From Candidatus Kerfeldbacteria bacterium (lineage in GTDB: Bacteria; Patescibacteriota; Patescibacteriia; SBBC01), in assembly GCA_016207275.1 (NCBI GenBank), contig JACQPY010000014.1, positions 6,035-70,034 of the forward strand: 64,000 nucleotides of DNA, given 5' to 3'. The notes under the pieces were generated by a model. The model saw only the letters and a program-made list of their open reading frames with translations, made no database searches and was not told the DNA's origin. Numbering within the stretch: the stretch's first letter is position 1; every line of letters begins with the position of its first letter. Shown here one piece after another: positions 5,753-44,756 of this stretch. The position numbers and the translations under genes were made by a program.

Positions 5753-5872
5753 GAAAAGAATTACCTTAATTTTTTGTTCGAGCGGAGCGAAGCGAAGTCG
5801 AGAACCAACCGGACAATTAGACGGCTTCTCGACTCCCCCGCCCAGACGGGGTCGCTCGAAGAGAAAATCCCC

Positions 5873-14767: not shown

Positions 14768-15360
14768 AGAATTCCCCTCCTGTCACCGCCTCTGGCGGGA
14801 CCCCGCTTAAGGCGGTGGCCTGAGGAGGAGTGTCCGGTCGAATGACCGGACGGGGTGGTGGGAGCGGCTCTCCCCCTGCCTGCCTGCCCCGAGCCATGTC
14901 GAGGGGAGGGGGAGTTGGAGGGGATGGGAGCTACTTGTGCCATCACTTTCTTCTGAATAGCAATGAGCTGTTCAAGCTCCCGATCCGTCAGCGGCGACAG
15001 CAGCTTTGCCACCCAGGCCAAGTGATCCTTCCGAAACTTGGCAAACTTGGCTCGGCCCTTGGCAGACAGCTGGATCTGGACTTTTCGACGGTCGCGAGAG
15101 TCCTCTACCCGTTCGAGATAGCCAGCTCGCACCACGCCGTCAATCAGCTGCGTGGCCGCGCTGCTGGTCGTCCCCATCACCTGGGCCATATCTTTGACCG
15201 TCACCGGACCATGATGCTTCACAAAATACAAAATCCGCACCTGCGCTGGGTGCAGTTTAAATTCACGAAAACACCGTTCTTTTCCAGCCCACATCGCCCG
15301 TCCGAGGGCCCGGGCAGACTCAAGAAACTGTTCAGTTAAGGCGTGTCGTTGCGGTGGCAT
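14764..15360 (-). CDS. MarR family transcriptional regulator with low-complexity C-terminal extension
   Basis: winged-HTH MarR core over first ~145 aa ('HPAQVRILYFV', 'LERVEDSRDRRKVQIQLSAKG'); final ~55 aa Ser/Gly/Arg-rich; stop overlaps LUD gene start (ATGA). Confidence 0.8.
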   Translation of the reverse strand: MPPQRHALTEQFLESARALGRAMWAGKERCFREFKLHPAQVRILYFVKHHGPVTVKDMAQVMGTTSSAATQLIDGVVRAGYLERVEDSRDRRKVQIQLSAKGRAKFAKFRKDHLAWVAKLLSPLTDRELEQLIAIQKKVMAQVAPIPSNSPSPRHGSGQAGRGRAAPTTPSGHSTGHSSSGHRLKRGPARGGDRRGIL

Positions 15361-28093: not shown

Positions 28094-29088
28094 CAAAACT
28101 GCTTTAGAAATTCCACGTTGCCGCTGTACAGCAAACGAATATCGGGAATGCCGGACTGGAGCAAGACCAGCCGGTCCAAACCCATGCCCCAGGCAAAACC
28201 CTTCCACCTTTTCGGGTCGAGCTTCATCGCCTTAAGCACGTTCGGATGAACCATGCCGGCCCCCAACATTTCCAGCCACGTCGTTTTTTTCCCTTTAACC
28301 CAGCGCAGGTCAATTTCAATCGCCGGTTCGACAAACGGAAAGTGACTTGGCCGAACGCGCAGTTCGACCGCCGGTCCGAGCAAGAGTCGGAAGAACGTCT
28401 TCAACGTCGTGACCACATGGGCCATCGTCAGGTGACGGTCAATGGCAATGCCGTCGCACTGGGTGAACATTGATTCGTGCGCGGCATCGGTGGCTTCGTG
28501 ACGAAAGACCCGGCCGACCTCGACAAACTTGAGCGGCGGCTTCCGGTGAAACTCAACCGCGCGCAGCTGAACGGTCGAGGAATGCGTCCGCAACACCAGC
28601 TCGGGGTGGTCCTTGATGTAGAACGTATCCTGGATGTCGCGAGACGGATGGTCTCTGGGAATGTTCAATCCGGCAAAATTGTACCAGTCAAGTTCCAGTT
28701 CCGGCCCTTCGTGAACGTCGTAGCCGAGGCTGCGCCAGACGCTGAGTACCCGCCGGCCGAGCTGCGTCAGTGGGTGAAGATGACCGCGCTCGATTTTCTC
28801 GCCGGGCAAAGTCGGATCAATCGTCGGCGCCGCGGCACTAAGCTGACGCCGTCGTTGCTCGGCGGCCTGGTCAAGCGCGGCCTGAAGGTCATTCACCAGT
28901 TGACCGAGCTTCGGCCGCTCCGTCGCCGGCAGTCCCGCCAGCCGCCGTCGCCACTCGGTCAATAAACCGTGTCGTCCTTGGAAAGTAGTGACCGCTCGTT
29001 CGAGATCGTCCTGATTGGCGGCGGCGGCGTAAGCCGCCAAGGCTTGCTGTCGAATCTGGGAGAACTCACGTTCCACGATGGCCTCCAT
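28093..29088 (-). CDS. pheS: phenylalanine--tRNA ligase alpha subunit
   Basis: 'FPFVEPAIEIDLRW' and class II motifs; start chosen at MEAIVER (in-frame ATG 29121 also possible). Confidence 0.85.
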   Translation of the reverse strand: MEAIVEREFSQIRQQALAAYAAAANQDDLERAVTTFQGRHGLLTEWRRRLAGLPATERPKLGQLVNDLQAALDQAAEQRRRQLSAAAPTIDPTLPGEKIERGHLHPLTQLGRRVLSVWRSLGYDVHEGPELELDWYNFAGLNIPRDHPSRDIQDTFYIKDHPELVLRTHSSTVQLRAVEFHRKPPLKFVEVGRVFRHEATDAAHESMFTQCDGIAIDRHLTMAHVVTTLKTFFRLLLGPAVELRVRPSHFPFVEPAIEIDLRWVKGKKTTWLEMLGAGMVHPNVLKAMKLDPKRWKGFAWGMGLDRLVLLQSGIPDIRLLYSGNVEFLKQF

Positions 29089-29542
29089 TACGCGACTGTC
29101 GGCTTTCCGCCCGGGCGACAAAAAAAGCTTCGACCAACGACAAAAACATGACCAAGGCCGCTGCCGTCCACCAGGTAAACAACTGCTGCGACTGCAACCA
29201 CAAGCTGCCGGTCAACAACAGGCCAGCCAAAATCGCTTGCCGGAACGAAATGGACACCAGTCGGAAACTGGTTTCCCGCCGTTGGAAGATCCACCGCACC
29301 ACGAAACCGACGATCGAGGCCAAGCCGAAAATCATCAAGAAAAAACTGGAGAAAAACAAGACTAAACCGATGAATCCCGTGCTCTGAGGATCGAGAAATA
29401 ACAAGACCATCACCCAGGACGACGCCGCAATCGCCGTACCGACCGCCATCGTGGTGAGGTATCGCTTAAGAGACATGCTCGGGCTAACTGACGCTGCCCC
29501 GCCTCCCGGAAGTAGGATCAGGATGTCGGGCCAGGCGACCAT
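29066..29542 (-). CDS. membrane protein, hypothetical
   Basis: 4 predicted TM helices; start uncertain (29542 or internal Met at 29476). Confidence 0.45.
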   Translation of the reverse strand: MVAWPDILILLPGGGAASVSPSMSLKRYLTTMAVGTAIAASSWVMVLLFLDPQSTGFIGLVLFFSSFFLMIFGLASIVGFVVRWIFQRRETSFRLVSISFRQAILAGLLLTGSLWLQSQQLFTWWTAAALVMFLSLVEAFFVARAESRQSRNGGHRGT

Positions 29543-29673
29543 ATCGTGTTGTCAGCATACCAGCGCCAGCGGTATTTTTCAAGGAATTACCGTGAAAAAA
29601 TCGACCGTTCTAGTATCGCGGCTGGTTTTCCACAGGCCTAACAATCCATCGCCCTGGACACGGTCAGCGAAAA

Positions 29674-29692
29674 CTACTACACTACGTAGTAG
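29674..29692. promoter_or_regulatory. CTACTAC-N5-GTAGTAG palindromic operator upstream of dsbA-like gene
   Basis: perfect 7-bp arms with 5-nt spacer 'actac', 11 nt upstream of the ORF start; identical arms recur at 35888-35906. Confidence 0.55.
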
Positions 29693-29702
29693 AAACTAAA
29701 CA

Positions 29703-30479
29703 TTGGCCAAACGCGACATGGAAGAAAAACCTTCGAGCAGTCCAAAAACCCCATTTTTCCAGGACACCCAAAAACTGACCTTTGCCCTGGGCCTGTCCTC
29801 GGGATTGGCGGTCATGGCCATTGCTGGCCTGATTATTGTCTCTGTCCAGGGCGGTAACCGAGTCGCCTCGGCTGACGTGAGCGGCAGTGGCAACGACACC
29901 ATCGCTGACACGTCTGTCTCTGACACGGGCAGCGGCGACACAACCACGCCCAACTACGACCCTCTGGCCGTAGCCAGCGCAGTCGGACTTGATCAGAACA
30001 AATTTAAAACCTGTCTTGACAGCAAGAAGTACACCTCCCGGGTCGACCGTGACCTGACCGAAGGCAACAACATCGGCGTCAATGGTACGCCGACCACCTT
30101 CGTCAACGGCACCGCGGTGTCCGGCGCGCTGCCCTACACCCAAATTAAATCGGCCATCGATGCTGCCTTAGCCGGCACCAAAGGCTCAACCGCCGTTCCC
30201 GAGGTTCGCAAAGACGACCATGTCCGCGGCGCCAAAAACCCCAAGGTCTACTTGGTTGAGTATTCTGACTTCCAGTGCCCGTTCTGCCTACGATTTCATC
30301 CCTCGTTGAAACAAGCGCTCGACGAGTACAAAGACAAAGTCGCCCTCGTCTATCGCCACTTCCCGTTGGAATCAATCCACCCGTCCGCCCGACCGCTGGC
30401 TGAGGGATCCGAATGTGCGGCTGAGCTTGGCGGTGAAAACGCCTTCTGGGAATTCCACGACAAGGTCTTCGAGGGCTAA
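29703..30479 (+). CDS. DsbA-like thiol:disulfide oxidoreductase (membrane-anchored thioredoxin-fold protein)
   Basis: N-terminal TM, Ser/Thr/Asp-rich linker, 'YLVEYSDFQCPFCLRFHP' CxxC active site in DsbA context. Confidence 0.8.
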   Translation: MAKRDMEEKPSSSPKTPFFQDTQKLTFALGLSSGLAVMAIAGLIIVSVQGGNRVASADVSGSGNDTIADTSVSDTGSGDTTTPNYDPLAVASAVGLDQNKFKTCLDSKKYTSRVDRDLTEGNNIGVNGTPTTFVNGTAVSGALPYTQIKSAIDAALAGTKGSTAVPEVRKDDHVRGAKNPKVYLVEYSDFQCPFCLRFHPSLKQALDEYKDKVALVYRHFPLESIHPSARPLAEGSECAAELGGENAFWEFHDKVFEG

Positions 30480-30488
30480 CCCTTGACC

Positions 30489-31040
30489 TTAACGGGCGGC
30501 CCTCGCGAGCTGCTCGTTTTGTTTTGAAGTACGTAAAACTTTTTCTCGAAAACCGACGGTTCCGAGGTTAACCACGCTGGCGGGAAAGCCATCGTGGAGA
30601 AAACGCCGCAGCACCCGCCGCATTTCCGGCGGAAAAATCCTCAGTCGGAAAATCGAACTAATGGGAATCCAGACCGGCCTCGTCAGTCCACGACTTTGGC
30701 GATAGGCTGGGGAGCGCTCGGGTGCGGCGCGCGGCACGGCCACCGGCAAGAACGGGGCCTGAACCAAAAAGTAGTCCTGCCGTCCGCCGCTGATGGTCCG
30801 ACTGGTGATCACGCGCTTAATCACCCGGCCACGCAAACCTGTTTCTTCATGTAGTTCACGTTGCGCCGCGGTTCGCGGGGTTTCGTGCTTTTCAACTTCT
30901 CCACCAGGAAAAACGTAATAGATACTCGTTCCCGGCCGCTGTCGTTCCATCAGTAAGACGTGACCTTTTGCCACCACAATCGCCGCCGCCCGATTTCGCC
31001 CTGACTGTGGTCGATTTCGTTTGTGCATTAGATGCTTCAT
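30489..31040 (-). CDS. NUDIX hydrolase
   Basis: Nudix box 'GGEVEKHETPRTAAQRELHEETGL'. Confidence 0.8.
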   Translation of the reverse strand: MKHLMHKRNRPQSGRNRAAAIVVAKGHVLLMERQRPGTSIYYVFPGGEVEKHETPRTAAQRELHEETGLRGRVIKRVITSRTISGGRQDYFLVQAPFLPVAVPRAAPERSPAYRQSRGLTRPVWIPISSIFRLRIFPPEMRRVLRRFLHDGFPASVVNLGTVGFREKVLRTSKQNEQLARAAR

Positions 31041-31207
31041 TCTTCAACAACAATCGTCGTGTCCGATGCGGCGACCCCGTACAACTCGCTTCGCTCGTAT
31101 ACGGGGCAGACGATCAGGAGCCGAGGGACCCCTTGCCCCGTATATCCCGCGTCAGCGGGATTGTACGGGGTAGCCGAGCGCGGAGGCGCGACACCGACCG
31201 CCCGAGT

Positions 31208-34183
31208 TCAGTAGTTCGGATCACGAAACTCGCAAATATCGCGGTAATCACAGAACTTACAGACCATGCCGGGCGTAGCGGCAAAGTTTCCCGACTGAAT
31301 TTTTTCGGCCACCGTCGTAATCCAAGCTTTGGTTTTCTCCAACTCGGCGTCGGATATCGGTACCTCCCGTTCCACGCCATCATCGAGGAAGTAGTAGCTC
31401 AAGCGCTGAACCTTGGCATTGAGAATATTCGGATCTTGGGCGGCCAGCGCATAGATCAGCAGCTGGTAACGGTCAGTGCTGTCCATGTCACGCGACCGGC
31501 CAGATTTATAATCAACAATGCCGACGGTTCGCTGGTGTGCGGCCGGATGAAGACCGAGCAGGTCAACCCGATCCATTTTTCCGGTGATCGTAAAGCGATC
31601 GAGCTTGAGGTTGAAGTCCTGTTCCAACCCTACCACCGCCGGCAGCTTCGCCGCCTGCTGCTCGTAGAATCGTTTCAGTGACTCGCGACCACGCACGCGG
31701 AACTGGTCACGCTGCTGTTCGCTCTCGTACCATTCGTCAACGAAGGACTCGTCGTAGAGTTGTAACAGTTCGTCAAGACTGACCGGCGATTGGCTCGTTG
31801 TCGGTGGTGGCGAGGAGCCAAATAAGTCAGCTTGTTTTGCCGCCCGTCGCTCCTGGACCACCTCGAAAAACCGCTGCAACGTTCGGTGCATGGACTCGCC
31901 GAACGACAGTAAGGCGTTACCACCGACGGGCACTTTCAGCACGTAGGCGTAGCGGAACTGCCACGGACATTTTTCGTAGGATCGCAACGCCGAAAAGCTG
32001 TACTTACTTCCCACAAACCGGACGTCGGCGGCGTCGACCGGCTGTCGCGGCTGAGGCTCAAGCTGGGCCAACCCTTTCGGTCGCCGCGGCGGTGATGCTT
32101 GGATAAAGCCGAGCTCGTACAGGAACCGCGACGGCTTTTTGACTCGCTGGCCGCCGTAGTCTTCGGCCGCGGTCAAAAATAGTCCGACCTTGGCTCGGGT
32201 CATGGCCACGTACAGCAGTCGGCGTTCCTCCTGCAGGTGCACATCGCCCGCCGGTAACGTTTCGCGGATTAACGCCTCGGGCACCTCAATCGGATCTTTC
32301 CGCTCAGTCGTCGGAAACCGGCGATCCACCAGCTGGACAATAAAGACGTAACTAAATTCCAAGCCTTTGGCCCCGTGAACGGTCATCAGCCGCACGCCGC
32401 CAGCATCCGGCTCGACGGTGCCCGCCAGACTGCCGGCATCACCCGACTCGAGCTTCAACTCGAATACTTCAAGGAAGTCGCGAACCGTCGGCTGGGCGTG
32501 TGATTTTTCAAACTCGGCGACTTCGTCCAAAAACTTTCGGATCGTGGCGACCCGCTCCACGGCGTGCGGTGTCGCCCGCTTACCCAACTCAGCCAGCACG
32601 CCGGCTCGCTTCAGGAAATCGAGCAGCACTTCCGAGACCTTGTGCGCCCGGGCAAACGTCGCTCCGTGCCTGATGACGCTCAGCAACTCGTCCATTCCTT
32701 TTCGTGATGAAGCGGAAATGTTCGGGACCGCTCGGCTTTGCACTAACGTTTGGTAGAGCGAAATTCCCTTCCGCCGAGCGTGAGCATTCAGTTCAACGAC
32801 ATCATCTGGCTTAAGAGCAAACGCCGGCAAGTTAAGCGTCCGAAACAACGCCGGACTCTCATGGTAATTATCAAGCAACCGTAAGTAGGCGACGAGGTCA
32901 AGAACGTCCGGCTTGCGGTACAGCCCTTTCGAAGCAAAAAACTGATACGGTACACCCGCTAATTCAAGGCTATGGGCAAACTGCTCGGCCTGGTCGTTAG
33001 CGCGAACCAAAATGGCGAACTCACGCCAATCCAAACCCGTCTTCTTCTGGAGCTCGATGATCCGCACGGTTACTCCTTGCGCTTCTTGCTCTTGCGTTTC
33101 GGCATGAACGAACTCAATCAAACCGTCTTCGGCGGCCACCGACTTAAGCTGCTTGGAAACCCGCACCTTGCCATCACGGAGCGCGACCTCCAGGCGGTTC
33201 GGATTGTTGAGCTGAATGAATTTGTAGGCCAGATCAAGAATGTTCTGACGCGAGCGGTAGTTGGTGGTCAGGACAACTTGTCGACAGTTCGGAAAATCTT
33301 TTCGGAATTCCAAAATATTAGAAATTGACGCGCCGCGGAACTTATAAACGGACTGGTCATCATCACCCACAACCGTCAGGTTGTTCTTCGGCGCGGCCAG
33401 CAGCTTAATCAGCTCGTACTGCGCCCAGTTCGTGTCCTGAAACTCATCCACTAAAACGTGCTGAAACTGCTGGCGGTACTGTTCAAGAACGGCCGGCCGT
33501 TTCTTGAACAGCTCCAGGGTGTAGGTAATCAGGGTACCAAAGTCCAAACTCGACGATTCCAACAACAGCTGACGGTAGGTGGCGTAGGCGTTGGCAACTT
33601 CTTCCAATCGCTTGGCTTCGCTAATTCCCGTTTCACCGCTGACGAACTGTTCCTGGCCGCGATCGAGCTTGTCCGATCGGGCGTAGGCCAGGTACGCTTC
33701 GGGCGTAATGTCTTCGTCCTCCAGACGCGAGAAGTGCTTGAGCAGCGCCCCAATGAACCGCGTCGGATTGCCCAGCGGTCGGTAGTAGTCGAGGTTGAAC
33801 CGATCGAAGTGGCGACGGATCAGCAGCCACTGCTCAGTTTGGTTAAGCAGCCGAAAGTCGTTCGGCAAACCGATGTCAATGGCGTGCTGTCGCAGGATGC
33901 GCTCGGCAAAGGCATGGAAGGTCGAGACCCACAAGTTAACGTAGCCGTACGGCAGCAGCCGGTCAACGCGCTCTTCCATTTCGGTGGCCGCTTTGTCCGT
34001 AAACGTCAGCGCCAAAATACCGTCGGTCGGCACTTTTTTCTCCAAAATTAACCACGCCACCCGCTGGGTAATGACCGTGGTTTTGCCCGTGCCAGCGCCG
34101 GCCACGATCAACAGCGGGCCGTCGCCGTGCTCGATCGCCTTTTTCTGCTCGGGATTGACGGTCGTTGGTGTCTCACCAGTCAT
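31208..34183 (-). CDS. UvrD/PcrA-family helicase fused to C-terminal RecB/Cas4-like PD-(D/E)xK nuclease with Cys cluster (AddA/AdnA-like)
   Basis: Walker A 'AGAGTGKTT' near N-terminus, UvrD motifs throughout; C-terminal 'EKCPWQFRYAYVLK…IVDYKSG…CKFCDYRDIC' nuclease + Fe-S cysteines. Confidence 0.8.
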   Translation of the reverse strand: MTGETPTTVNPEQKKAIEHGDGPLLIVAGAGTGKTTVITQRVAWLILEKKVPTDGILALTFTDKAATEMEERVDRLLPYGYVNLWVSTFHAFAERILRQHAIDIGLPNDFRLLNQTEQWLLIRRHFDRFNLDYYRPLGNPTRFIGALLKHFSRLEDEDITPEAYLAYARSDKLDRGQEQFVSGETGISEAKRLEEVANAYATYRQLLLESSSLDFGTLITYTLELFKKRPAVLEQYRQQFQHVLVDEFQDTNWAQYELIKLLAAPKNNLTVVGDDDQSVYKFRGASISNILEFRKDFPNCRQVVLTTNYRSRQNILDLAYKFIQLNNPNRLEVALRDGKVRVSKQLKSVAAEDGLIEFVHAETQEQEAQGVTVRIIELQKKTGLDWREFAILVRANDQAEQFAHSLELAGVPYQFFASKGLYRKPDVLDLVAYLRLLDNYHESPALFRTLNLPAFALKPDDVVELNAHARRKGISLYQTLVQSRAVPNISASSRKGMDELLSVIRHGATFARAHKVSEVLLDFLKRAGVLAELGKRATPHAVERVATIRKFLDEVAEFEKSHAQPTVRDFLEVFELKLESGDAGSLAGTVEPDAGGVRLMTVHGAKGLEFSYVFIVQLVDRRFPTTERKDPIEVPEALIRETLPAGDVHLQEERRLLYVAMTRAKVGLFLTAAEDYGGQRVKKPSRFLYELGFIQASPPRRPKGLAQLEPQPRQPVDAADVRFVGSKYSFSALRSYEKCPWQFRYAYVLKVPVGGNALLSFGESMHRTLQRFFEVVQERRAAKQADLFGSSPPPTTSQSPVSLDELLQLYDESFVDEWYESEQQRDQFRVRGRESLKRFYEQQAAKLPAVVGLEQDFNLKLDRFTITGKMDRVDLLGLHPAAHQRTVGIVDYKSGRSRDMDSTDRYQLLIYALAAQDPNILNAKVQRLSYYFLDDGVEREVPISDAELEKTKAWITTVAEKIQSGNFAATPGMVCKFCDYRDICEFRDPNY

Positions 34184-34345
34184 GCTCCCATTCTAGCAGT
34201 TCGCTTTGTCTCTTGACACCGGTCGTACCGAGGAGTAGGTTTGCCGTGCTTTCTGATGGAAAAGACCACGGAAGCAAGGCGAAAAAATCGCCTCTGCTTC
34301 GTTGACAATACGGAGAAGTACAACTCTACAACGCGGAGGTAGCAG

Positions 34346-35131
34346 ATGAAACTCCTGAAAGTGCTGTTCACGTTCGCGCTGTTCGCCCTGCCCTCGCTCG
34401 CCCTGGCTGTCCCGCTCCAGATCCCGTACTCCGGCCAGTTGTCGGAGAGCGGGACGCCGGTCAATGGCACGCGGAACATCATGGTCAACGTCTACGACGT
34501 TCCGACCGGCGGGTCACTGCTCTACACCGAGAACTTCGCTGGCACACAAGTGACGAACGGAATCTTCCACGTCACCCTCAACGCTCCGGATACCGTCTGG
34601 ACCGGCGCTGACCGCTGGCTCGGCGTGTCAGTCAACGGCGGAGCAGAGCTCACCCCTCGGACCAAGATCGGAAGTGTGCCGTATGCGGTGAGGACGGCTG
34701 CTGCCGAAGCACTCGTCAATCCGTTGCCGCAAGTTGGCGGGAACTACAAGTACGACGGGAATACCGTTAGCCCCTATGTTACCTCGATTTCATGGGTGGC
34801 TGTGGACCAAATCACCGTGAGCTGCCCTGCTGATGGATACCTCATCACGAGTGCGTCCGGCAGCATTATCCTCGATAATGCCACAGGCTACCTGGGGAGG
34901 CTCCGTGTTCAGGAACAAGCTCCTTCTGATTTGGGAGGAGGGTTTATCTTCGGCGGTAGCTCAACACCTGGGTGGATGTACGTGCCCGTTACCATTTCGG
35001 AGGTACAGTCAGTCACAGCAGGCGTTCATACTATTACGGTATGGGCGCATCTGCCGAGTGGGACTTACCAGTCGTACCGATACTATCGGCACACGATCCA
35101 AGCCCTCTGGTTCCCCAACCGCTACCAGTAA
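34346..35131 (+). CDS. secreted hypothetical protein
   Basis: signal peptide 'MKLLKVLFTFALFALPSLALA'; no family recognised. Confidence 0.5.
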   Translation: MKLLKVLFTFALFALPSLALAVPLQIPYSGQLSESGTPVNGTRNIMVNVYDVPTGGSLLYTENFAGTQVTNGIFHVTLNAPDTVWTGADRWLGVSVNGGAELTPRTKIGSVPYAVRTAAAEALVNPLPQVGGNYKYDGNTVSPYVTSISWVAVDQITVSCPADGYLITSASGSIILDNATGYLGRLRVQEQAPSDLGGGFIFGGSSTPGWMYVPVTISEVQSVTAGVHTITVWAHLPSGTYQSYRYYRHTIQALWFPNRYQ

Positions 35132-35143
35132 GGAGGTGTTCCT

Positions 35144-35677
35144 ATGAGAATTACGGTTCTCACGCTCGTCATCACGGCCTTCTTGGCTGCTTCGACAGCA
35201 AGCGGGCAAACGGTGCAGCCCAAGTCCCTCTTCTCCAGCGGCGGTCAACTCATGACCGACGGCGCGACGCAGGTCAACGCCAACCTCGGCGACGTGTTCA
35301 CCGGCGTGAGCTTCGGCGGCACGACCGAGGTCCAACACGGATTCTGGACGTCGCCGGAGAATCAGGTCATCGGAGTAGACGGGCCGAAGTTGACCCTCGT
35401 CTTCTACCTCAGCCAGGCCCAGCCGAACCCGGCTCGGACATCAACGACGATCGAATTCGGTCTGCCAGTCGAGGAGCCGGTCGTAACGCTCAACATCTAC
35501 GACGTCTCTGGTCGGCTCGTCCGGCGGCTCTTCAACGGCAAGATGAACGCCGGCGTGTTCCGCCAGACCTGGGATCTCCGGAACGATGCCGGAACGCGTA
35601 TGCCGGCGGGTCTGTACTTCTCCCGTCTGACAGCCAGCTCGTTCCGAGCGGTCCGCAAGATCGTCGTCATCAACTGA
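35144..35677 (+). CDS. secreted protein with T9SS-type C-terminal sorting (Por_Secre_tail-like) domain
   Basis: signal peptide; C-terminal 'QPNPARTSTTIEFGLPVEEPVVTLNIYDVSGRLVRRLFNGKMNAGVFRQTWDLRNDAGTRMPAGLYFSRLTASSFRAVRKIVVI' matches the CTD consensus (NPFNp.T.I.f.Lp…v.L.IYDvsGrlVr.L……G……WdG.d..G..v.sGvYf.rL). Confidence 0.6.
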   Translation: MRITVLTLVITAFLAASTASGQTVQPKSLFSSGGQLMTDGATQVNANLGDVFTGVSFGGTTEVQHGFWTSPENQVIGVDGPKLTLVFYLSQAQPNPARTSTTIEFGLPVEEPVVTLNIYDVSGRLVRRLFNGKMNAGVFRQTWDLRNDAGTRMPAGLYFSRLTASSFRAVRKIVVIN

Positions 35678-35868
35678 CAATTGCGGCTGACTCGATCAAA
35701 CAGGTGGTCGCTCATCCGGAGTGGCCACCTGTCTTACATTACATCAGTCCAACCAGCCATAAACCGCAGTCGCACTGGCCGTGCAATCGCCGCCTTTTGT
35801 TGAGGATTGACCGTGCGTGGAATTACCGAGGGCATAACCGTATTCTAGCATTTCACTGCTCGGTTGAC

Positions 35869-35906
35869 TTGACAGGTAAATTCAATGCTACTACAGTCTG
35901 TAGTAG
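35869..35906 (+). promoter_or_regulatory. promoter-like TTGACA plus CTACTAC-N5-GTAGTAG operator heading the thiol-redox/metal gene cluster
   Basis: TTGACA at 35869-35874; palindrome CTACTAC-agtct-GTAGTAG at 35888-35906 with same arms as the site at 29674-29692. Confidence 0.55.
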
Positions 35907-35947
35907 ATGATCAAACTTCCGAAACTTATCCACAGGCCGTAAAAGTC

Positions 35948-36367
35948 ATGACTGACCGTAACAGAGCACTCATTGGAATGTTCATACTGACGGCCATGCT
36001 CAGCCTAGCCGTTTTTTGGTCGAACGGCGGACATTTCGGCGACCATGAAGGAATCTGTGTGGCTGCTTCGATGCAAGGAGGCGTCTGTCCAGAATCAGCC
36101 ACCTTCGACTCGCTCATCTTTCATGGCAATGCGCTGAAAAGCTACATACAGAACGAGTCTGGAAATTCCTCGCTCTTACTGGCCTCGCTCGTCCTGACGC
36201 TTGTCCTCGCCCTTGTTCATGTTGCGTCAAAGCCGACTCTCTCGCAACCGATCGAAGTTGCCAGATACCGCGCACAATCCGTCTCCCCTAAACCACGAAC
36301 GCAGCAGTTCAACCGCTGGTTGGCCCTCCACGAAAGCAGCCCATCAGACTTTACTGGACGCGCCTAG
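35948..36367 (+). CDS. two-TM membrane protein with loop Cys pair, hypothetical
   Basis: start at MTDRNR (track ORF begins 35885 inside the operator); 'CVAASMQGGVC' between TM helices. Confidence 0.45.
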   Translation: MTDRNRALIGMFILTAMLSLAVFWSNGGHFGDHEGICVAASMQGGVCPESATFDSLIFHGNALKSYIQNESGNSSLLLASLVLTLVLALVHVASKPTLSQPIEVARYRAQSVSPKPRTQQFNRWLALHESSPSDFTGRA

Positions 36368-36497
36368 GTCGCTGTTGTAGCGGTTCATTTTCGCGCGTCC
36401 AAACGCCCTATCAGACGGGCGTTTTATGTATCAACGAATTAATCCCACCTGCCTATGACAACATACCGCTTCCCACAATCCATCCAGCGTCACGCAC

Positions 36498-37424
36498 ATG
36501 TCTAAACCTTGCCACCCCGACGGTCTTACCTGCACTCGGTTCGTCCAACCATCATCGACTCCGACCAGCAGTGTTACGAAGCCGTCTTATGTGCGAAGAT
36601 TCGGCCTCGGCTACTTCGTCCTGTTCGTTGTGGCCGCCGCCTTGCTGATCGCCAACGCCACTATGCTCCAGGCCATGAACAGCGACGTACAAACCCAAAA
36701 ACGTCAGGCTGAAGAAGCGATCAAACCGGCCGAGATCGAGGTGACCGCCGTCACTGCTCCGTCGTGCCAAAACTGCTTCAACCTGATGAATCTCCTCGGT
36801 AGTCTGAGCGGGAATGAGAAAATCAAAGTCGTGAAAACCGACACCGTTGACTACACCTCCGCCGCCGGAGCGTCCATGGTCAAGCAGTACAACCTCGAGC
36901 GGGCGCCGGCCTTCATTATTAAGGGACAAACGGAGAAACTGTTGTCGGTGTTGCCGGCCGTGAAATCGTACGGCCAGTTGGCGGGCAATGACTTTGCCGG
37001 CAAGAACACGCCAGCGCCGTACCTCGAGATTGCCACCGGCCAGGTTCGTGGAGAGTTCCAGGCGACTTACCTGACCGAGAAGCAATGTTCGGAATGCTAC
37101 GACCCGACAGTCAACCGCCAGGCCCTCCAGCAGCTCGGCATGCGGCCGACTTCGGAAACAACCGTCGACCGCGCTGATCCCGACGGACAGAATCTGGTCA
37201 AGCAGTACAAACTGACGACCACGCCGACCGTTATTCTGACCGGCGATCTTGCCGCCTACGTCAACTTCAATCAGGTCTGGAAGAAGGTGGGCACGATCGA
37301 GCCGGACGGCGCCTACGTCTTCCGCAGCGGCCAAGATCTGATGGGCACCTACTACGACTTGGCTACCAAAAAAGTCATCAAACCGAAAAATGACGAGACC
37401 AACACCAACACTTCAACGCCGTAA
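36498..37424 (+). CDS. membrane-anchored protein with two thioredoxin-like CxxC modules
   Basis: N-terminal TM; 'PSCQNCF…APAFIIKG' and 'CSECYD…TTPTVILTG' (CxxC plus cis-Pro-region like thioredoxin fold) duplicated. Confidence 0.55.
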   Translation: MSKPCHPDGLTCTRFVQPSSTPTSSVTKPSYVRRFGLGYFVLFVVAAALLIANATMLQAMNSDVQTQKRQAEEAIKPAEIEVTAVTAPSCQNCFNLMNLLGSLSGNEKIKVVKTDTVDYTSAAGASMVKQYNLERAPAFIIKGQTEKLLSVLPAVKSYGQLAGNDFAGKNTPAPYLEIATGQVRGEFQATYLTEKQCSECYDPTVNRQALQQLGMRPTSETTVDRADPDGQNLVKQYKLTTTPTVILTGDLAAYVNFNQVWKKVGTIEPDGAYVFRSGQDLMGTYYDLATKKVIKPKNDETNTNTSTP

Positions 37425-37447
37425 TCGTATCAACTAACAAGGATAAA

Positions 37448-37726
37448 ATGACCATGGACCACCCAACTCCTCCCCCCGCTGAAAAACCGGCAATTCGACC
37501 TGAACCGGAGCCGAACCGAAGCTTCACCCTCCGCATCCCCAAACCGAACTGGCAAGTCATTGCGCTCATCCTGATCGCGGTGATCGCCGGATTCCAGACA
37601 ATTCAATTGGCCCGGCTCAAAGGCAATGTGACAGCCAAAGTGTCAGCCGCCACAACGACTGCGCCGACGCCGGCTGCATCCGCCGGTTCCGATTCGGGGC
37701 TCCAATCGCAAGTCGGCGGTTGCTAA
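37448..37726 (+). CDS. small membrane protein (92 aa) with C-terminal Cys
   Basis: Pro-rich N-terminus, one TM, Ala/Thr/Ser-rich tail ending '…QVGGC'. Confidence 0.4.
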   Translation: MTMDHPTPPPAEKPAIRPEPEPNRSFTLRIPKPNWQVIALILIAVIAGFQTIQLARLKGNVTAKVSAATTTAPTPAASAGSDSGLQSQVGGC

Positions 37727-37732
37727 ACGCGT

Positions 37733-38515
37733 ATGATTGACTTCCATCACAACCGTTCCAAAGCGCCGCGACCGCAATGGTTTGCGCCGGTCGATCGACA
37801 GACCAACGAGCGTCTTGCTCGCACGGTCGTCTGGCTGGTGACTGCGACCTTGGCAACCAATCAGTTCTTGATTGCCTCGATTTCCCCGAAGTCGGCAGGC
37901 GCCTCTCCCCTGGCATCGCTGAAATCGATGCTGGGGATGAAGACGGCCTCGGCCATGGTCATCGTCGGGCCGAAGCTCAATTCCGACGGCAAAACCACCA
38001 GCCTGGTTCAGCAACCGACCATTTCCAGCGTACCGGCCAATCCGAAATCAGGCGATGACCTAACTGATGCTAAGGCCGTCATGCTGGCCACTGGTCGGCC
38101 GCCCTACGCTCCCGATGGCGTCTCCTTCGACGATCCGATCAATGCCCAGAATGTCTGGGTAGCCTACGAACAGAGCATCACGCTCAGCGGCAGTCTGGAA
38201 ACTCGCTACAACAACCTGATCAACGGCTTCACCTGCAACTACTGCTGCGGCGAAGCGGCCATTGTCACGCGCAACCGGCAGTGCGGGTGCGCCCACGCCA
38301 AAGCCGCCCGCGGGTTCTTCAAGTACATGCTGCAAACCTTCGGCGACCAGTACAGCGACGAACAACTGATGGGCGAAGCCTTCCGCTGGCAGGCGATCTG
38401 GTACCCGAAAGGCGCGGTCGAAGACTACCTGCTGGCTACCGGCAAGGCGAATGTCATCGGTCACGCTCCGCACGGCGGCGCTGGTGCTGACAACATGCAC
38501 GGATTAACCACGTAG
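37733..38515 (+). CDS. Cys-rich hypothetical protein (260 aa)
   Basis: N-terminal TM; 'CNYCCGEAAIVTRNRQCGCAHAKAA' cluster; no family recognised. Confidence 0.45.
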   Translation: MIDFHHNRSKAPRPQWFAPVDRQTNERLARTVVWLVTATLATNQFLIASISPKSAGASPLASLKSMLGMKTASAMVIVGPKLNSDGKTTSLVQQPTISSVPANPKSGDDLTDAKAVMLATGRPPYAPDGVSFDDPINAQNVWVAYEQSITLSGSLETRYNNLINGFTCNYCCGEAAIVTRNRQCGCAHAKAARGFFKYMLQTFGDQYSDEQLMGEAFRWQAIWYPKGAVEDYLLATGKANVIGHAPHGGAGADNMHGLTT

Positions 38516-38522
38516 CAGTTAC

Positions 38523-38969
38523 ATGATCAAACGATCAACCATCATCGGCACCATCAGCACGGTCGGCTTACTGGTCGTCTACCTGTCGGTTGTCAGCGCT
38601 TTGTCCGGTTGGTCCACGACCGCAGAGCAATGGTCGAGTTTCTGGCCGTATCTGGTCGGCTTGGCGATCGGTTTCGGTGTCCAGGTCGGGCTCTACGCAT
38701 ACCTTCGCCAGGCCGTTCACCGTAGTCAGTCAACCGGCAAAGTCGTGGCGCTAACTGGTACGACCTCAACCGCCGCCATGGTCTCCTGCTGCACCCACTA
38801 CCTCGTCAACCTCCTGCCCGTTCTCGGCGCCTCGGGTATCGCCACCTTCGTCGGCCAGTATCAGGTCAATCTGTTCTGGGTCGGACTGGCCGCTAACGCC
38901 GCTGGTCTGGCGTACCTGGCTTCGCGGATCATGAAATTCAGGAAACATCTGCCAGCCATGGCTGCTTGA
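38523..38969 (+). CDS. polytopic membrane protein with CC motif (148 aa), hypothetical
   Basis: 4 TM helices, 'VSCCTHYLVNLLP'. Confidence 0.45.
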   Translation: MIKRSTIIGTISTVGLLVVYLSVVSALSGWSTTAEQWSSFWPYLVGLAIGFGVQVGLYAYLRQAVHRSQSTGKVVALTGTTSTAAMVSCCTHYLVNLLPVLGASGIATFVGQYQVNLFWVGLAANAAGLAYLASRIMKFRKHLPAMAA

Positions 38970-39008
38970 GCGCCTTGCTCATTCCTTACCAACGAGGTAC
39001 GTAAATCT

Positions 39009-39659
39009 ATGCCTGACACCCAAACATCATCGTTCCGCGATCCGGTCTGCGGCATGAGCGTCAACCCGGCCACTGCCACGTTCACCGCCGACCACGCCGG
39101 GGCGACCGTCTACTTCTGCTCGCCCGGCTGCCGCGACCAATTTCTGGCCAATCCAGAATCCTTCACCACCTCTCCAAAAACAACGGTGGTGACGATCCGG
39201 CCGGAAGTTCTCTACGCCGTCCTGGGGCTCATCGCCGTTATCCTAGTCATTTTCGCCTTTCGACCAGGCCCGCCAAGCTCGTCGGTCAGCACCGGATCAA
39301 CCGCGGCGGTTACCGGCACGCCAGCTGGCCAGGACCAGGTGGTCGATGACGGCTCCGGCGGGGTAATTACGTCAGCCAGTCTAAACCGCTCAGCCAGCAC
39401 CCCTGATCAACTGGTCATCACCGTGTCCCTCAATACCCACTCTGTCGACCTGACCGACTTCCGCCCCGTTGACCAAGTCCGCCTGCGAATGGCTGCCGGC
39501 GACGAACTCGAACCGCTGGCTGTCAGCGGTCAGGGCGAGATCAGCTCGCACCATCAAAACTACCGTCTGACCTTTCCGCGGCCGGGCAGCGCGGAGGCCT
39601 CTGTCGTGGTGAAAAACGTGGCTGGCGTAACCGAACGTAAGCTGCCAATCCAACTATGA
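39009..39659 (+). CDS. YHS/TRASH metal-binding domain protein with TM anchor
   Basis: 'DPVCGMSVNP…YFCSPGCRDQFLANP' canonical YHS/TRASH Cys motif, then TM helix and Ser/Thr-rich domain. Confidence 0.65.
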   Translation: MPDTQTSSFRDPVCGMSVNPATATFTADHAGATVYFCSPGCRDQFLANPESFTTSPKTTVVTIRPEVLYAVLGLIAVILVIFAFRPGPPSSSVSTGSTAAVTGTPAGQDQVVDDGSGGVITSASLNRSASTPDQLVITVSLNTHSVDLTDFRPVDQVRLRMAAGDELEPLAVSGQGEISSHHQNYRLTFPRPGSAEASVVVKNVAGVTERKLPIQL

Positions 39660-39661
39660 AT

Positions 39662-39820
39662 CCCGTTAGACGGCTCACGCATCAACGTATACTCATTGAA
39701 GGTTACGATCATACTTACAAGACTAACCATCTAATCCCGTTAGACGGTCCTGCAGTTGGGCCCGACAGTGGGATAGGCGTAGATCTTCAGTTTCTTAACC
39801 GTCTAACGGGACTAACGGGA
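39662..39820. repeat. CCCGTTAGA-family element, compound copy 5 (two left arms, one right arm plus extra half-arm)
   Basis: cccgttagacgg at 39662-39673 and 39736-39747; ccgtctaacggg 39799-39810; ctaacggg 39813-39820 abutting ATG of next gene; flanked by atgaa direct repeat. Confidence 0.75.
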
Positions 39821-40695
39821 TGAACCTGCTCGTCAGCGCCTCGATCGTCGCGTCGTTCGTGGCTGGGGTGGCCGCACTGTTCGCACCGTGCTGCATCACG
39901 GTGCTCCTACCGTCGTACCTCGGCTCAATCTTCCGCGAACGGAAGGCCGTCTTCTTGATGACCTTCATCTTCTTCCTCGGCATCCTGACGGTCTTTTTCC
40001 CCTTGGGATTGGGGTCGGCAGCGTTCGGCCAGTTCTTGAGCCGCAACCACACGCTCATCTTCTCGATCGGCGGCGCCTTCTTACTCATCCTTGGACTCGG
40101 CCTGCTCCTCGGCAAGAGCTTCTCCCTCCCCTTCCACGTCAACCCCACCCTCAAGAACCACCACCCCTGGTCAGTCTTCACGCTCGGCATCTTCTCCGGC
40201 ATTGCCACCACCTGCTGTGCGCCGGTTTTAGCCGGCGTCTTAGCCCTGGCCGCCCTGCCCGGCTCGATCTTTTGGGGCGCCGCTTACACCGTCAGCTACG
40301 TCCTCGGCATGGTCACGCCGCTGTTCATCCTGGCGTCGGTGCTCGATCGCACCAAACTCACCCAGCGATTCATGGCCTGGCGGCGCAGGTGGACGTACTC
40401 GATTGGCAAACTGGTTGTCAACCTCAGCGTGGCCGAAGCGATGGCCGGCGTCATCTTCGTTGGCATGGGCCTGACAACGATCTGGCTGGCAATGAACAAC
40501 CGCCTGGCCGTCCACTCACGCTACCAGGTTGACGTCAACATCTTCCTGACCAAAGTGCTCCGGAGCATCAAGGGTGCCGTGACCGCCATTCCCGAAGTTG
40601 TCTGGGCAGTCGTGCTGATCCTCGCGCTCATCGGCATTATCGCCCGAACACGTTATCTTATTCGTCAAGAAAAACACTATGACCATAAACCATAA
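39820..40695 (+). CDS. DsbD_2/CcdA-like polytopic membrane protein with CC pairs in TM1 and TM4
   Basis: 'FAPCCITVLLP' and 'TTCCAPVLAGV' in TM helices; ~8 TM; family assignment tentative. Confidence 0.45.
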   Translation: MNLLVSASIVASFVAGVAALFAPCCITVLLPSYLGSIFRERKAVFLMTFIFFLGILTVFFPLGLGSAAFGQFLSRNHTLIFSIGGAFLLILGLGLLLGKSFSLPFHVNPTLKNHHPWSVFTLGIFSGIATTCCAPVLAGVLALAALPGSIFWGAAYTVSYVLGMVTPLFILASVLDRTKLTQRFMAWRRRWTYSIGKLVVNLSVAEAMAGVIFVGMGLTTIWLAMNNRLAVHSRYQVDVNIFLTKVLRSIKGAVTAIPEVVWAVVLILALIGIIARTRYLIRQEKHYDHKP

Positions 40696-41332
40696 AGGCA
40701 TCTCCGTCGGGACGTCGATTGTTCTCTCCGCGATCATTCTCGTGGTCGGCGGACTCATCTATCTGAGTGGCCGTGAACGGTCGAGCCCGAGCAGTTCGAC
40801 CGCGGCCGCTGGCGACACCGCCGACCATCACGGCCTGGCCAGCAGCGGTCCGACCTCGAACCTCCAAAACCTCATCAACCAAGCTGCGCCCGACTTCTCG
40901 CTGACCGATCACAACGGCGTGACCTATTCCCTGGCTAGTCTGAAAGGGAAAAACGTGGTCTTATTCTTCAACGAGGGTGTCATGTGTTACCCGGCCTGCT
41001 GGAATCAGGTTGCTCTCTTTGGCGCGGATGATCGGTTCAAGGGCGACGACGTCGTTGCGCTGTCGGTGGTGGTGGATAGTCAACAGGAATGGAATGAAGC
41101 AGTCCGTCAGCTTCCCGAGCTGGCCCAAGCCACGGTCGTTCATGATAACGGCGCAAAAGTATCCTCCGCCTACGGAGTGCTGACCACCAAGTCCTCAATG
41201 CACTACGGCCAGCTGCCGGGCCACACCTACGTCGTGATCGACCAGAACGGCATCATCCGCCACGTCTACGACGATCCGAACATGGCCATTCACAATGACC
41301 AGCTCGTTGAAGAGATCGCCAAACTGTCGTAA
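40679..41332 (+). CDS. membrane-anchored redoxin/TlpA-like thioredoxin-fold protein
   Basis: N-terminal TM; 'FSLTDHNGVTYSLASLKGKNVVLFFNEGVMCYPAC' AhpC/TSA-redoxin-like arrangement (non-canonical CxxxC). Confidence 0.5.
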   Translation: MTINHKGISVGTSIVLSAIILVVGGLIYLSGRERSSPSSSTAAAGDTADHHGLASSGPTSNLQNLINQAAPDFSLTDHNGVTYSLASLKGKNVVLFFNEGVMCYPACWNQVALFGADDRFKGDDVVALSVVVDSQQEWNEAVRQLPELAQATVVHDNGAKVSSAYGVLTTKSSMHYGQLPGHTYVVIDQNGIIRHVYDDPNMAIHNDQLVEEIAKLS

Positions 41333-43020: not shown

Positions 43021-43758
43021 ATGGTCGAGCTTCAAAAGATTACCAAAATCTTCGGCCGGGGAGAAACCTCCGTTCACGCCGTCAACAACGTCAGCCTGAA
43101 CATTCAGCCGGGCGAGATCGTCGTCATTATGGGACCGTCGGGATCAGGCAAGACCACACTCGTCTCAATTGCGGGCGGGTTGATGAAACCAACTGATGGA
43201 ACTATCATCATCGACGGCACCGACATCACCGCGAAAAACGAGCGCCAGCTGCCGAAGATTCGCCTGACCACCATGGGTTTCATCTTCCAGTCGTTTAACC
43301 TGCTACAGAATCTAACGGCTATGGAAAACGCGGCCATTCCCCTGCTCCTCGCTGGCCAGTCAAAGCAGACGGCCTTTGATAAAAGCCGGGCCCTGCTTGA
43401 ACGGCTCAACCTCAGCCATCGGTCTCACGCTCGTCCGCGAGAACTGTCCGGCGGCGAGCAGCAGCGCGTAGCCATTGCCCGGGCCCTCGTGAACAACCCA
43501 AAAGTCATTTTCGCCGACGAACCGACTGCCAACCTTGACCGGGCGATCGGCCACCAGGTCATGCAGCTCCTCTGCTCGGTCGGCTGCGAGCAGGGCAAGA
43601 GCGTCATCATCGTCAGCCACGACGAACGCATTAAGGATGTTGCCCACCGGGTGATTTACATCGAGGATGGTAAGCTCATACGCGAGGAACCGGGTCAGCA
43701 CAACCGCATCTGCACCATGCGCGCTCACTCGTACCAATTGCGCGACCAACGCGCTTGA
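43021..43758 (+). CDS. ABC transporter ATP-binding protein (MacB/LolD-like)
   Basis: 'GPSGSGKTT', 'LSGGEQQRVAIARAL', 'IFADEPTANLD'; starts 2 nt after permease stop. Confidence 0.9.
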   Translation: MVELQKITKIFGRGETSVHAVNNVSLNIQPGEIVVIMGPSGSGKTTLVSIAGGLMKPTDGTIIIDGTDITAKNERQLPKIRLTTMGFIFQSFNLLQNLTAMENAAIPLLLAGQSKQTAFDKSRALLERLNLSHRSHARPRELSGGEQQRVAIARALVNNPKVIFADEPTANLDRAIGHQVMQLLCSVGCEQGKSVIIVSHDERIKDVAHRVIYIEDGKLIREEPGQHNRICTMRAHSYQLRDQRA

Positions 43759-43801
43759 CAATTAAGCTCATCACTACTAGGCTTTTTCGTAGCATTTGCC
43801 T

Positions 43802-44194
43802 ATGCCCCGTTTCCTGACCACGACCGTCCTCATCGCCTTCAGCCTTAGCCTGATGCTGAGCGTCTGGCTGTTATCTTCCTGCAGCGCCCACACGCTGGCC
43901 AGCCTGCAACCGTTTGCTCCCTACGTTAATGCTTGTTCCCTGTCAGCGGGCACTGAACACGTCCAACTCTGGAAAACGCTGCTGCTGACCTTCGTGCTCA
44001 CCACCGTCGTCCTCGGGACTATCCGCCTTACCGCCACAGTTGTTCAGGGATTCGTCACCTATGCGATTGTTCCGCTGGCTACGCAGTCCTGGCCGAACAC
44101 CGATAAAGACCGAGACTGGCGACTCAAGCGGCGTGATCCGCTCGCTGTCGCCCTTGCTTCCGGCATTCTGCAGCACGGTTCTCGCAATCACTAG
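43802..44194 (+). CDS. membrane protein, hypothetical
   Basis: 3 TM helices; followed by hairpin + T-rich tract. Confidence 0.45.
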   Translation: MPRFLTTTVLIAFSLSLMLSVWLLSSCSAHTLASLQPFAPYVNACSLSAGTEHVQLWKTLLLTFVLTTVVLGTIRLTATVVQGFVTYAIVPLATQSWPNTDKDRDWRLKRRDPLAVALASGILQHGSRNH

Positions 44195-44288
44195 TAGTTA
44201 GCCTCCGCATCCTGTAACCCCACTTCCGTGGGAGGTCTTTGGCTGTTTTCTTGAATTGCATCTAACCACTAGCCACTAACTACAAACC

Positions 44289-44756
44289 ATGAAACTTCGC
44301 CCTGCCTACACGACTACCCTCGTCCTCGCCAGCTTCGGCTTGCTCTTGTCCGGCTACCTGTCGTACTGGAACCTGTGGGGCCCGAGCTGCCATCAAGGGC
44401 CGCTCAGCTGGCTGGTCAGCTGCGGCGGGCCGCAGAAAGTCCTGATCTTCGGTTTGCCGACCTGCGTCTACGGTTTCTTCATGTACCTGGCCGTAGCCGT
44501 CACCGCCTTGATTGGATTGACCAGCAACAAACACCGCGGAACGACCGCTACCCTCATCGGCCTCGGATCGCTCGGTACGGCCTTTGCTGGCGGATTAATG
44601 ATCTACGAAATCTTTGTTTTGAAACTGACCTTCACCACGGTGCCAGCCTGCGTCTACGGCTTGGTCCTCTACCTCGGCATCCTCACTGCCGCCATCGTCG
44701 GTCGACGGTCAATCAGTCGCTCTCCAGCGTCACCGCCGTCGGATAGGCTACCTTGA
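44289..44756 (+). CDS. VKOR-like membrane protein candidate (4 TM, conserved Cys)
   Basis: loop Cys pair 'SCHQGPLSWLVSCGG' followed by 'VLIFGLPTCVYGFFMY' resembling the VKOR loop-Cys/'S.Y..fGiP' region; canonical CxxC not evident, so tentative. Confidence 0.3.
   Translation: MKLRPAYTTTLVLASFGLLLSGYLSYWNLWGPSCHQGPLSWLVSCGGPQKVLIFGLPTCVYGFFMYLAVAVTALIGLTSNKHRGTTATLIGLGSLGTAFAGGLMIYEIFVLKLTFTTVPACVYGLVLYLGILTAAIVGRRSISRSPASPPSDRLP

Follow-up and report, generated by a model that had tools for sequence, protein, structure and literature searches.

Repressors of the BlaI/MecI/CopY family bind TACA/TGTA dyads as dimers, and the cop box, TACAnnTGTA, has the consensus RNYKACANNYGTMRNY (PMC7253601). 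A characterized BlaI protein, BlaI_0696 of Clostridium thermocellum, recognizes 6-bp inverted repeats lying 5 nucleotides (nt) apart, as established by DNA affinity purification sequencing and electrophoretic mobility shift assay (PMC8457756), and CopY is defined by a C-terminal CXC/CXCX4CXC metal site (PMC11672702). In this study, we analyzed 64,000 nt of DNA from a Candidatus Kerfeldbacteria bacterium of the Patescibacteria, or candidate phyla radiation (CPR) (assembly GCA_016207275.1, contig JACQPY010000014.1, positions 6,035 to 70,034; hereafter, the window), in which the palindrome CTACTAC-N5-GTAGTAG precedes a dsbA-like gene and an eight-gene thiol-redox/metal cluster. Judged from sequence comparison, these palindromes are very probably operators of a homodimeric, winged-helix repressor of the BlaI/MecI/CopY family (Penicillinase_R, PF03965). 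The initial annotation of this DNA had foreseen a regulator acting as a dimer and a small regulon for envelope thiol/metal stress, and this prediction is now supported by conservation of the motif, by about 110 metagenomic loci and by an association with BlaI-like repressors and M56 peptidases.

The two palindromes had been described as perfect dyads with identical 7-bp arms and a 5-nt spacer, and as such they were found at 29674-29692 (operator 1, CTACTACACTACGTAGTAG) and 35888-35906 (operator 2, CTACTACAGTCTGTAGTAG). The sequence CTACTAC-N5-GTAGTAG occurs exactly twice in the window; allowing up to 2 mismatches adds no further match (0.02 expected), none of 100 shuffled sequences reached two matches, and spacer lengths of 0 to 20 other than 5 gave no match in the window. 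A single additional match, a possible third, degenerate operator at 43774-43792 (CTACTAGGCTTTTTCGTAG), appears once 3 arm mismatches are allowed. The half-site CTACTAC is present in 8 copies (1.6 expected), with 4 of them outside the palindromes, within or between other genes. The dyad is better written in an 8-3-8 form, CTACTACA-N3-(T/C)GTAGTAG, in which operator 2 is perfect. An alignment of about 220 nt around sites 1 and 2 showed little similarity beyond the promoter-operator region. The concern that such a motif might be frequent and randomly placed was not borne out, since it is rare in the window and strictly associated with promoters.

From its sequence, each palindrome is predicted to sit within a sigma-70-like promoter of the form T(G/T)GACA-13 nt-dyad, with TACAnT inside the dyad. 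The overlap of site 2 with a TTGACA-N17 promoter, remarked on earlier, was confirmed by a promoter scan (TTGACA-N17-TACAGT, 35869-35897), and a consensus promoter scan placed TGGACA-N17-TACACT (29655-29683) in the same register at site 1. At both sites the predicted -35 hexamer (TGGACA, 29655-29660, for the dsbA-like gene; TTGACA, 35869-35874, for the cluster; both on the plus strand, as are all promoter elements described here) ends 13 nt before the palindrome, and the -10-like hexamer (TACACT, 29678-29683, and TACAGT, 35892-35897, respectively) is made up of the inner left arm and the spacer. The string TKGACA-N13-CTACTA is present in three copies in the window, compared with 0.01 expected, and the third copy reveals the site at 43774-43792, where TTGACA (43755-43760) again stands 13 nt before the dyad and inspection of the sequence finds TAGGCT (43778-43783) as the embedded -10. 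The arrangement of a -10 within the dyad and a -35 located 13 nt upstream is common to all three sites and, because the search pattern was built on it, to the metagenomic sites described below.

The closest genome found, a metagenome-assembled genome likewise of Candidatus Kerfeldbacteria (JACQKH010000025, locus L001), encodes a helicase 70% identical to that of the window, and 19 kb of it was searched. It had been feared that the motif would be missing upstream of orthologous genes in relatives; in L001, the whole gene order is kept and the motif stands before both orthologous transcription units, as CTACTACACATTGTAGTAG upstream of the dsbA-like orthologue and as TTGACA-N13-GTACTACACTCTGTAGTAG upstream of the orthologue of the gene for a 139-amino-acid (aa) membrane protein that follows operator 2. 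In the alignment of site 2 with its counterpart, the conserved islands are the -35 hexamer, in the same register, the palindrome (17/19 positions) and a downstream TTATCCACA box, while the 13-nt spacer between the -35 and the palindrome and the central three bases diverge. At site 1 of L001 the embedded -10 is spoiled (TACACA) and an extended -10, TGgTATGAT, is found just upstream, so that the operator there would cover the start site.

The scan of public metagenome contigs with the pattern TKGACA-N14-TACTACA-N4-GTAGTAG, which specifies about 19.5 bases, returned 110 stretches carrying 112 sites in 98 unique contexts, with a GC content ranging from 30% to 63% and many of them originating from 0.1-0.2 µm groundwater filtrates. 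The central dyad base, which the pattern leaves free and which forms the last base of the -10 TACAnT, is T in 99% of the 98 unique sites, an argument for a genuine -10 function of the TACAnT hexamer. The outermost C, likewise free, is present in 79%, and T occupies the position symmetric to A8 in 66%. The first gene downstream encodes a DsbA-like protein at 36 sites, a fusion of DsbD_2 and Cupredoxin_1 at 14, DUF305 at 11, a homologue of the Cys-rich 260-aa protein of the window at 10, DUF3105 at 7 and CsoR at 3. Over 150 non-redundant genes of the downstream operons, the Pfam tally was headed by Thioredoxin_4/DSBA (20 genes), HMA (17), Cupredoxin_1 (15) and DsbD_2 (11), followed by DsbD_TM (7), DUF1573 (5), DUF305 and YtkA (4 each), DUF3105 (3) and P-type ATPase, multicopper oxidase and CsoR (2 each). 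One of these loci, L083, comes close to the operon of the window and largely keeps its gene order, with genes for a Cys-rich protein, a thioredoxin-like protein, CcdA (65% identity), TlpA and a 148-aa membrane protein, and has BlaI-M56 directly upstream; in another, L128, a VKOR homologue adjoins the motif-blaI-M56 unit.

These contexts name the regulator by association, and it is most likely a PF03965 repressor paired with an M56 peptidase. At one locus the motif directly precedes the gene for a 130-aa protein with the hallmarks of BlaI/CopY, and tblastn found homologues of this protein in about half of the motif loci. Pfam assigned it to Penicillinase_R (84.9 bits) and the product of the next gene to Peptidase_M56 (PF05569; 42 bits, cutoff 31), and its best solved homologues are BlaI of Mycobacterium tuberculosis (2G9W, E value of 1.8e-10), MecI (1OKR) and BlaI (1SD4/1XSD). 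The usual layout is blaI, the M56 gene, the promoter-palindrome right after the M56 stop codon and then the target genes; at 42 of the 60 informative sites, those with at least 2 kb of upstream DNA, a blaI-like gene on the same strand ends 850-1400 nt upstream. The 1.28 Mb of Patescibacteria DNA that had been retrieved by way of the helicase and served as a control yielded no blaI-like gene. Furthermore, the region within about 25 nt of the start of the blaI-like gene itself matches CTACTACAnnnTGTAGTAG at 13/16 positions or better in 35 of 50 cases, which points to autoregulation; these palindromes lay outside the selection made by the scan pattern, and matches of this quality occur in about 5% of random 270-nt windows, many of those being probably real sites themselves.

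A reciprocal test started from four BlaI-like proteins picked by profile homology alone (L191-L194), one of which is encoded on a closed 1.27-Mb Woesebacteria chromosome; closed Patescibacteria genomes with the blaI-M56 pair include CP065002 and OZ246394. All four genes reside in islands of the type CsoR/cupredoxin/CopA ... blaI-M56-dsbA-dsbD_2/cupredoxin-HMA(-multicopper oxidase), with PF05569 called in each, and in all four islands the stretch from M56 to dsbA contains a palindrome of 15-16/16 that has TTGACA in register; in three of them a 14/16 site is also located just before blaI. The M56 partners possess the HExxH motif in 52 of 52 cases, and M56/M48 are the sole domains detected in them. 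A penicillin-binding (transpeptidase-like) sensor domain was looked for in these partners and none was found; at 240-394 aa, they are too short to contain one. Among the BlaI-like proteins, CxC is present in 2 of 52, and 50 of 52 have no cysteine in their last 45 residues. In the M56 partners, three cysteines (C64, C149 and C324 in L083 numbering) are 94-100% conserved across L083 and 51 other loci and may constitute a metal or thiol sensing site. Many M56 partners also display a CGC motif near residues 55-64 and a Cys-rich C-terminal tail.

The motif, its register and conservation, its gene contexts and its tight linkage to blaI-M56 are documented by the data above. On this basis and from what is known of the repressor family, we infer how the repressor binds DNA and represses, how proteolysis controls it and what the signal is, along the following lines: (i) the operator, CTACTACA-N3-TGTAGTAG, which contains a TACA/TGTA core, is fused to a predicted sigma-70-type promoter, its right arm covering the predicted transcription start; (ii) a repressor dimer would bind both 8-bp arms (centre-to-centre distance, 11 bp) and block the -10 and the start site, since with the -10 in the left arm and spacer and the right arm over the start, bound repressor would occlude RNA polymerase; (iii) in most of the Patescibacteria that carry it, the unit reads [operator]-blaI-M56-[promoter/operator]-targets; and (iv) if BlaR1/BlaI and MecR1/MecI are taken as models, the M56 peptidase would be activated by an envelope signal, leading to inactivation of the repressor and derepression of the regulon. 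That signal could, speculatively, be copper or thiol stress perceived through the three nearly invariant cysteines of the M56 protein.

The regulon of the present organism is predicted to include at least the dsbA-like gene and the eight-gene thioredoxin/Cys-rich/YHS/CcdA/TlpA cluster, and probably also a gene pair for a membrane protein and VKOR behind the third site. Elsewhere in the radiation, the predicted membership extends to DsbD-cupredoxin fusions, HMA proteins, DUF305, DUF3105, CsoR-CopA and multicopper oxidases. Taken together, the element is predicted to be a switch for an envelope disulfide-bond and copper-stress regulon that recurs across many Patescibacteria. The fullest version of this proposal, a radiation-wide switch in which an M56 protease without a penicillin-binding domain senses copper or thiol-redox stress, inactivates a BlaI-type repressor and turns on disulfide and copper genes, is put forward tentatively, as we judge it somewhat less probable than its opposite.

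Several observations weigh against the assignment of the palindromes to a BlaI-type repressor. No BlaI-like or M56-like tblastn match was obtained in the window, so that the presence of the regulator in the organism is assumed; the 19 kb of the Kerfeldbacteria relative L001 hold no Penicillinase_R or M56 gene, and a profile search that produced 775 BlaI-like matches gave none labelled Kerfeldbacteria among the 120 of these 775 that were listed. In L002, a more distant relative with a 69% identical helicase, the dsbA-like gene is retained and no palindrome precedes it even at 3 mismatches, which means that the element can be lost. Moreover, the TACA and TGTA cores are 3 nt apart, where the classical cop/bla box has 2 nt, the gene immediately behind site 2 encodes a small membrane protein that is no obvious thiol-redox enzyme, and most of the metagenomic loci had been found by means of the motif, with only 4 loci in the reciprocal test. 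On the assignment to a BlaI-type repressor, the regulator of this organism must be encoded outside the window. At 18 of the 60 informative sites elsewhere (about 30%) there is no adjacent regulator, and remote sites such as those of the window are thus normal.

The dyads could instead be operators of another factor, such as CsoR, the MarR protein encoded at 14764-15360 or a further regulator, the linkage to BlaI-M56 then reflecting a shared neighbourhood. This we regard as unlikely. Several motif loci do contain or adjoin a CsoR gene, which in 3 cases immediately follows the motif, and palindrome-like sites of 13-14/16 precede csoR in L191 and L193; CsoR is nevertheless found in about 10 of 110 loci, against blaI-M56 at 42 of 60 informative sites, and the motif has no trace of the G/C tract that CsoR/RcnR operators carry. 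The placement of the palindrome before blaI itself in 35 of 50 cases argues against CsoR and MarR alike. In favour of MarR, it is the only recognizable DNA-binding regulator in the window. As the regulator of these sites it was rejected: there is no CTACTAC near its gene, which heads its own LUD/ABC-exporter string, and none of the 80 helicase loci (L001-L080) yielded a homologue. Alternatively, the lineage may have lost BlaI-M56, leaving relic operators that persist as a -10 and start region with constitutive expression. In favour of this account, the 64 kb of the window and the 19 kb of the relative contain no regulator gene, the operator has been lost in L002 from in front of a retained gene, and the third site is degenerate. 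We consider it, if anything, slightly less probable than the operation of another factor. The arms are perfect at two sites here and nearly so in a relative of 70% identity in which the flanks have diverged, right-arm bases dispensable for a promoter are kept as well, and the 18 informative sites elsewhere likewise stand without an adjacent regulator.

A role in RNA, as a hairpin at the 5' end of the mRNA that affects stability or translation, or as a minus-strand terminator, is very improbable. The palindromes can fold into stems of 7-8 bp (-8.1 and -9.0 kcal/mol), the scan that listed the promoters also gives both sites as terminator-like on the minus strand, and at site 1 of L001 the upstream extended -10 would put the start at the left arm, where the hairpin would be transcribed. 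However, the fixed -35/-10 register and the 99% T place the predicted start inside the right arm, so that the stem would not be transcribed intact, and the arms are invariant, without compensatory changes, across GC contents of 30-63%. Rfam covariance models at gathering score gave 0 matches over 29000-37000. An intrinsic terminator was rejected, as the stem contains no more than 3 GC pairs, its T tract is weak and neither site marks the end of a convergent minus-strand gene. Finally, the identical palindromes bracket a 6.2-kb segment (29674-35906) with a helicase-nuclease gene, as chance repeats or the ends or remnants of a mobile element might. The shuffle statistics and more than 100 independent promoter-linked occurrences contradict this, the sites are conserved in the relative with different intervening content, and extended similarity outside the promoter-operator is weak; the statistical and comparative data effectively refute this explanation, and we give it next to no credence. 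Among the accounts considered, operators of a BlaI-type repressor thus remain our preferred interpretation of the palindromes.

With respect to the genes themselves, each site had been reported to lie 10-45 nt upstream of a plus-strand gene with an extracytoplasmic thiol-redox function; the positions hold, as does the DsbA-like product at site 1, and the first gene at site 2 does not obviously fit the description. The end of operator 1 is separated by 10 nt from TTG 29703 and by 25 nt from ATG 29718 in a plus-strand gene (29703-30479) whose product, a DsbA-like thiol-disulfide oxidoreductase, carries an N-terminal membrane anchor and a CPFC motif (Pfam Thioredoxin_4/DSBA, open reading frame [ORF] and BLASTP evidence). 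According to BLASTP, this protein (29718-30479) is circularly permuted with respect to canonical Patescibacteria DsbA-like proteins, its residues 157-252, including CPFC, matching canonical residues 79-173 and its residues 79-151 matching canonical residues 183-262. Permuted dsbA-like genes are also found in the relatives (L001, 10004-10753, and L002, 8545-9264, both on the minus strand), and the order is therefore not an assembly artefact, being kept in three genomes. A single-sequence AlphaFold model of the protein reached a mean predicted local distance difference test (pLDDT) score of 54, which made it unsuitable for a fold search. The interval from site 1 to site 2 holds genes for NUDIX and AddA-like helicase proteins on the other strand and two genes for secreted proteins.

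Operator 2 ends 41 nt before ATG 35948 of the 139-aa membrane protein gene, which heads a probable operon of eight co-directional plus-strand genes (35948-41332), assigned with Pfam and NCBIfam and kept in order in L001. It encodes, in order, the 139-aa membrane protein, a 308-aa thioredoxin-like protein, a 92-aa membrane protein ending in VGGC, the 260-aa Cys-rich protein (CNYCCG...CGCAH), a 148-aa membrane protein, a YHS-domain protein, CcdA/DsbD_TM and a TlpA/AhpC-TSA-like protein. The 139-aa protein has just one homologue among 5.8 billion proteins, which limits footprinting through its orthologues to L001. The start of its gene is ambiguous (35885-35947): with an in-frame ATG at 35885, the palindrome would become part of the coding sequence and YPQA would be the translation of the conserved TTATCCACAGGCC, as in the longer L001 ORF. 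The NCBI start is at 35948 (139 aa), and in the relative a later Met is used (130 aa). The Cys-rich family, C-x-[FY]-C-C-G ... C-G-C-A-H, has no Pfam match and repeatedly supplies the first gene of the regulon (10 loci). A C-terminal (Q/M)VGGC is shared by the 92-aa protein of the window, a 245-aa protein of L083 and an 80-aa protein of L096; examples of Cys-rich and VGGC genes are those at 37448-37726 and 37733-38515 in the window, 6217-6954 in L083 and 1047-1286 in L096. The third site comes after the stop codon of an ABC ATPase gene and is followed on the plus strand (43796-44756) by genes for a 132-aa membrane protein (43796/43802-44194) and VKOR (44289-44756).

In many of the loci L081-L190 (for example, L082, L088, L097, L118 and L129), the first ORF called downstream starts 1-6 nt past the palindrome, these ORFs being defined by the first in-frame start that gives at least 60 aa, with start codons as predicted. 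A start codon 1-6 nt after the dyad, combined with a transcription start predicted in the right arm, would make the mRNAs leaderless or nearly so. In the window, ATG 35907 abuts operator 2 and opens an ORF of only 11 codons.

A second sequence element accompanies the palindromes. The 9-mer TTWTCCACA has just two copies in the window, each beside a palindrome: a DnaA-box-like TTTTCCACA (29626-29634, plus strand), 48 nt upstream of operator 1 and kept in L001 and L002, and TTATCCACA (35926-35934, plus strand), a perfect match to the DnaA-box consensus, 20 nt downstream of operator 2 and kept in L001. The L001 copies are located at 5865-5873 and 10852-10860. The box is position-locked near the palindrome in 24 other loci altogether, as TGTGGATAA fixed at -34 to -36 nt in 18 and as TTATCCACA at +19/+21 in 6. 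In unrelated Patescibacteria DNA, the box followed by TTGAC within 3-10 nt was encountered 4 times, compared with 0.2 expected, and TTWTCCACA thus looks like a general promoter-proximal element.

Further upstream, GGAATTACCG and TTCTAGYAT precede both operators (29583-29616 and 35819-35851) with a mutual spacing of 25 and 24 nt, respectively, and at distances from the palindrome that differ between the two sites. The site-1 copy of GGAATTACCG directly adjoins the -35 of a promoter predicted to drive, in the divergent direction, the gene for a 158-aa membrane protein; GGAATT is also kept in the L001 site-2 region, and a third copy of GGAATTACCG lies within a long minus-strand ORF (61951-63987).

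Very little is known of gene regulation in the CPR/Patescibacteria, most of which have not been cultured. Our literature searches on the motif and on BlaI/BlaR1 in CPR bacteria found no description, and the switch is apparently undescribed so far in the Patescibacteria. The analysis yields a defined cis-element, TTGACA-N13-CTACTACA-N3-TGTAGTAG, a candidate regulator pair and a coherent candidate regulon spanning GC contents of 30% to 63%, and it suggests a physiological context, envelope thiol and copper stress, for the Cys-rich CxxCCG...CGCAH family, DUF305 and DUF3105. If the proposed switch is real, it would represent a new input class for BlaR1/BlaI signalling, extending this type of proteolytic control to a non-antibiotic input, and would provide one of the earliest regulons to be defined in CPR bacteria, whose regulators are very few. 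The operator-in-promoter design could also be used as a compact regulatory part.

Comparison with known systems places the element among, and apart from, several of them. The 6-bp repeats of C. thermocellum BlaI_0696, with their 5-nt gap, have the geometry of the 7-5-7 dyad described here, and BlaI_0696 is autoregulated with a small regulon (PMC8457756), as is proposed for the Patescibacteria proteins. On the other hand, its half-site is GTCTAT, its targets are others and it requires paired dyads, which are not present at the sites of the window. In the Scs (suppressor of copper sensitivity) and Dsb systems of Proteobacteria, DsbA-like, DsbD/CcdA-like and TlpA-like proteins are co-expressed and protect envelope thiols under copper stress; the analogy is functional only, as regulation there is of other kinds (e.g., two-component systems) and involves no BlaI-type operator. 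M. tuberculosis BlaI (Rv1846c), with its partner BlaR (Rv1845c), is the best solved homologue (2G9W) and shares an identical AYTTVM in the aligned region. Its M56 partner, to our knowledge, lacks a classical penicillin-binding domain, and its regulon reaches beyond beta-lactamase; the content of the regulon proposed here differs from it.

With CopY/CopR of Enterococcus, Streptococcus and Lactococcus, the Patescibacteria proteins share the DNA-binding family, the TACA/TGTA core and a copper-handling regulon (HMA, P-type ATPase and cupredoxin), whereas they lack the C-terminal CXC/CXCX4CXC, have a protease partner instead and would recognize cores spaced by N3 rather than N2. As for BlaI/BlaR1 and MecI/MecR1 of Staphylococcus aureus and Bacillus licheniformis, the differences are that the M56 partners here are without the penicillin-binding sensor domain of BlaR1/MecR1, that the cores are 3 nt apart in arms extended to CTACTACA, in an 8-3-8 arrangement with an embedded -10, and that the candidate targets are DsbA, DsbD, cupredoxin, HMA and copper genes instead of beta-lactamase or PBP2a. 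Common to both are a PF03965 repressor with an adjacent M56 HExxH peptidase, a TACA/TGTA dyad that overlaps the promoter and operators placed before both the regulator and the target genes.

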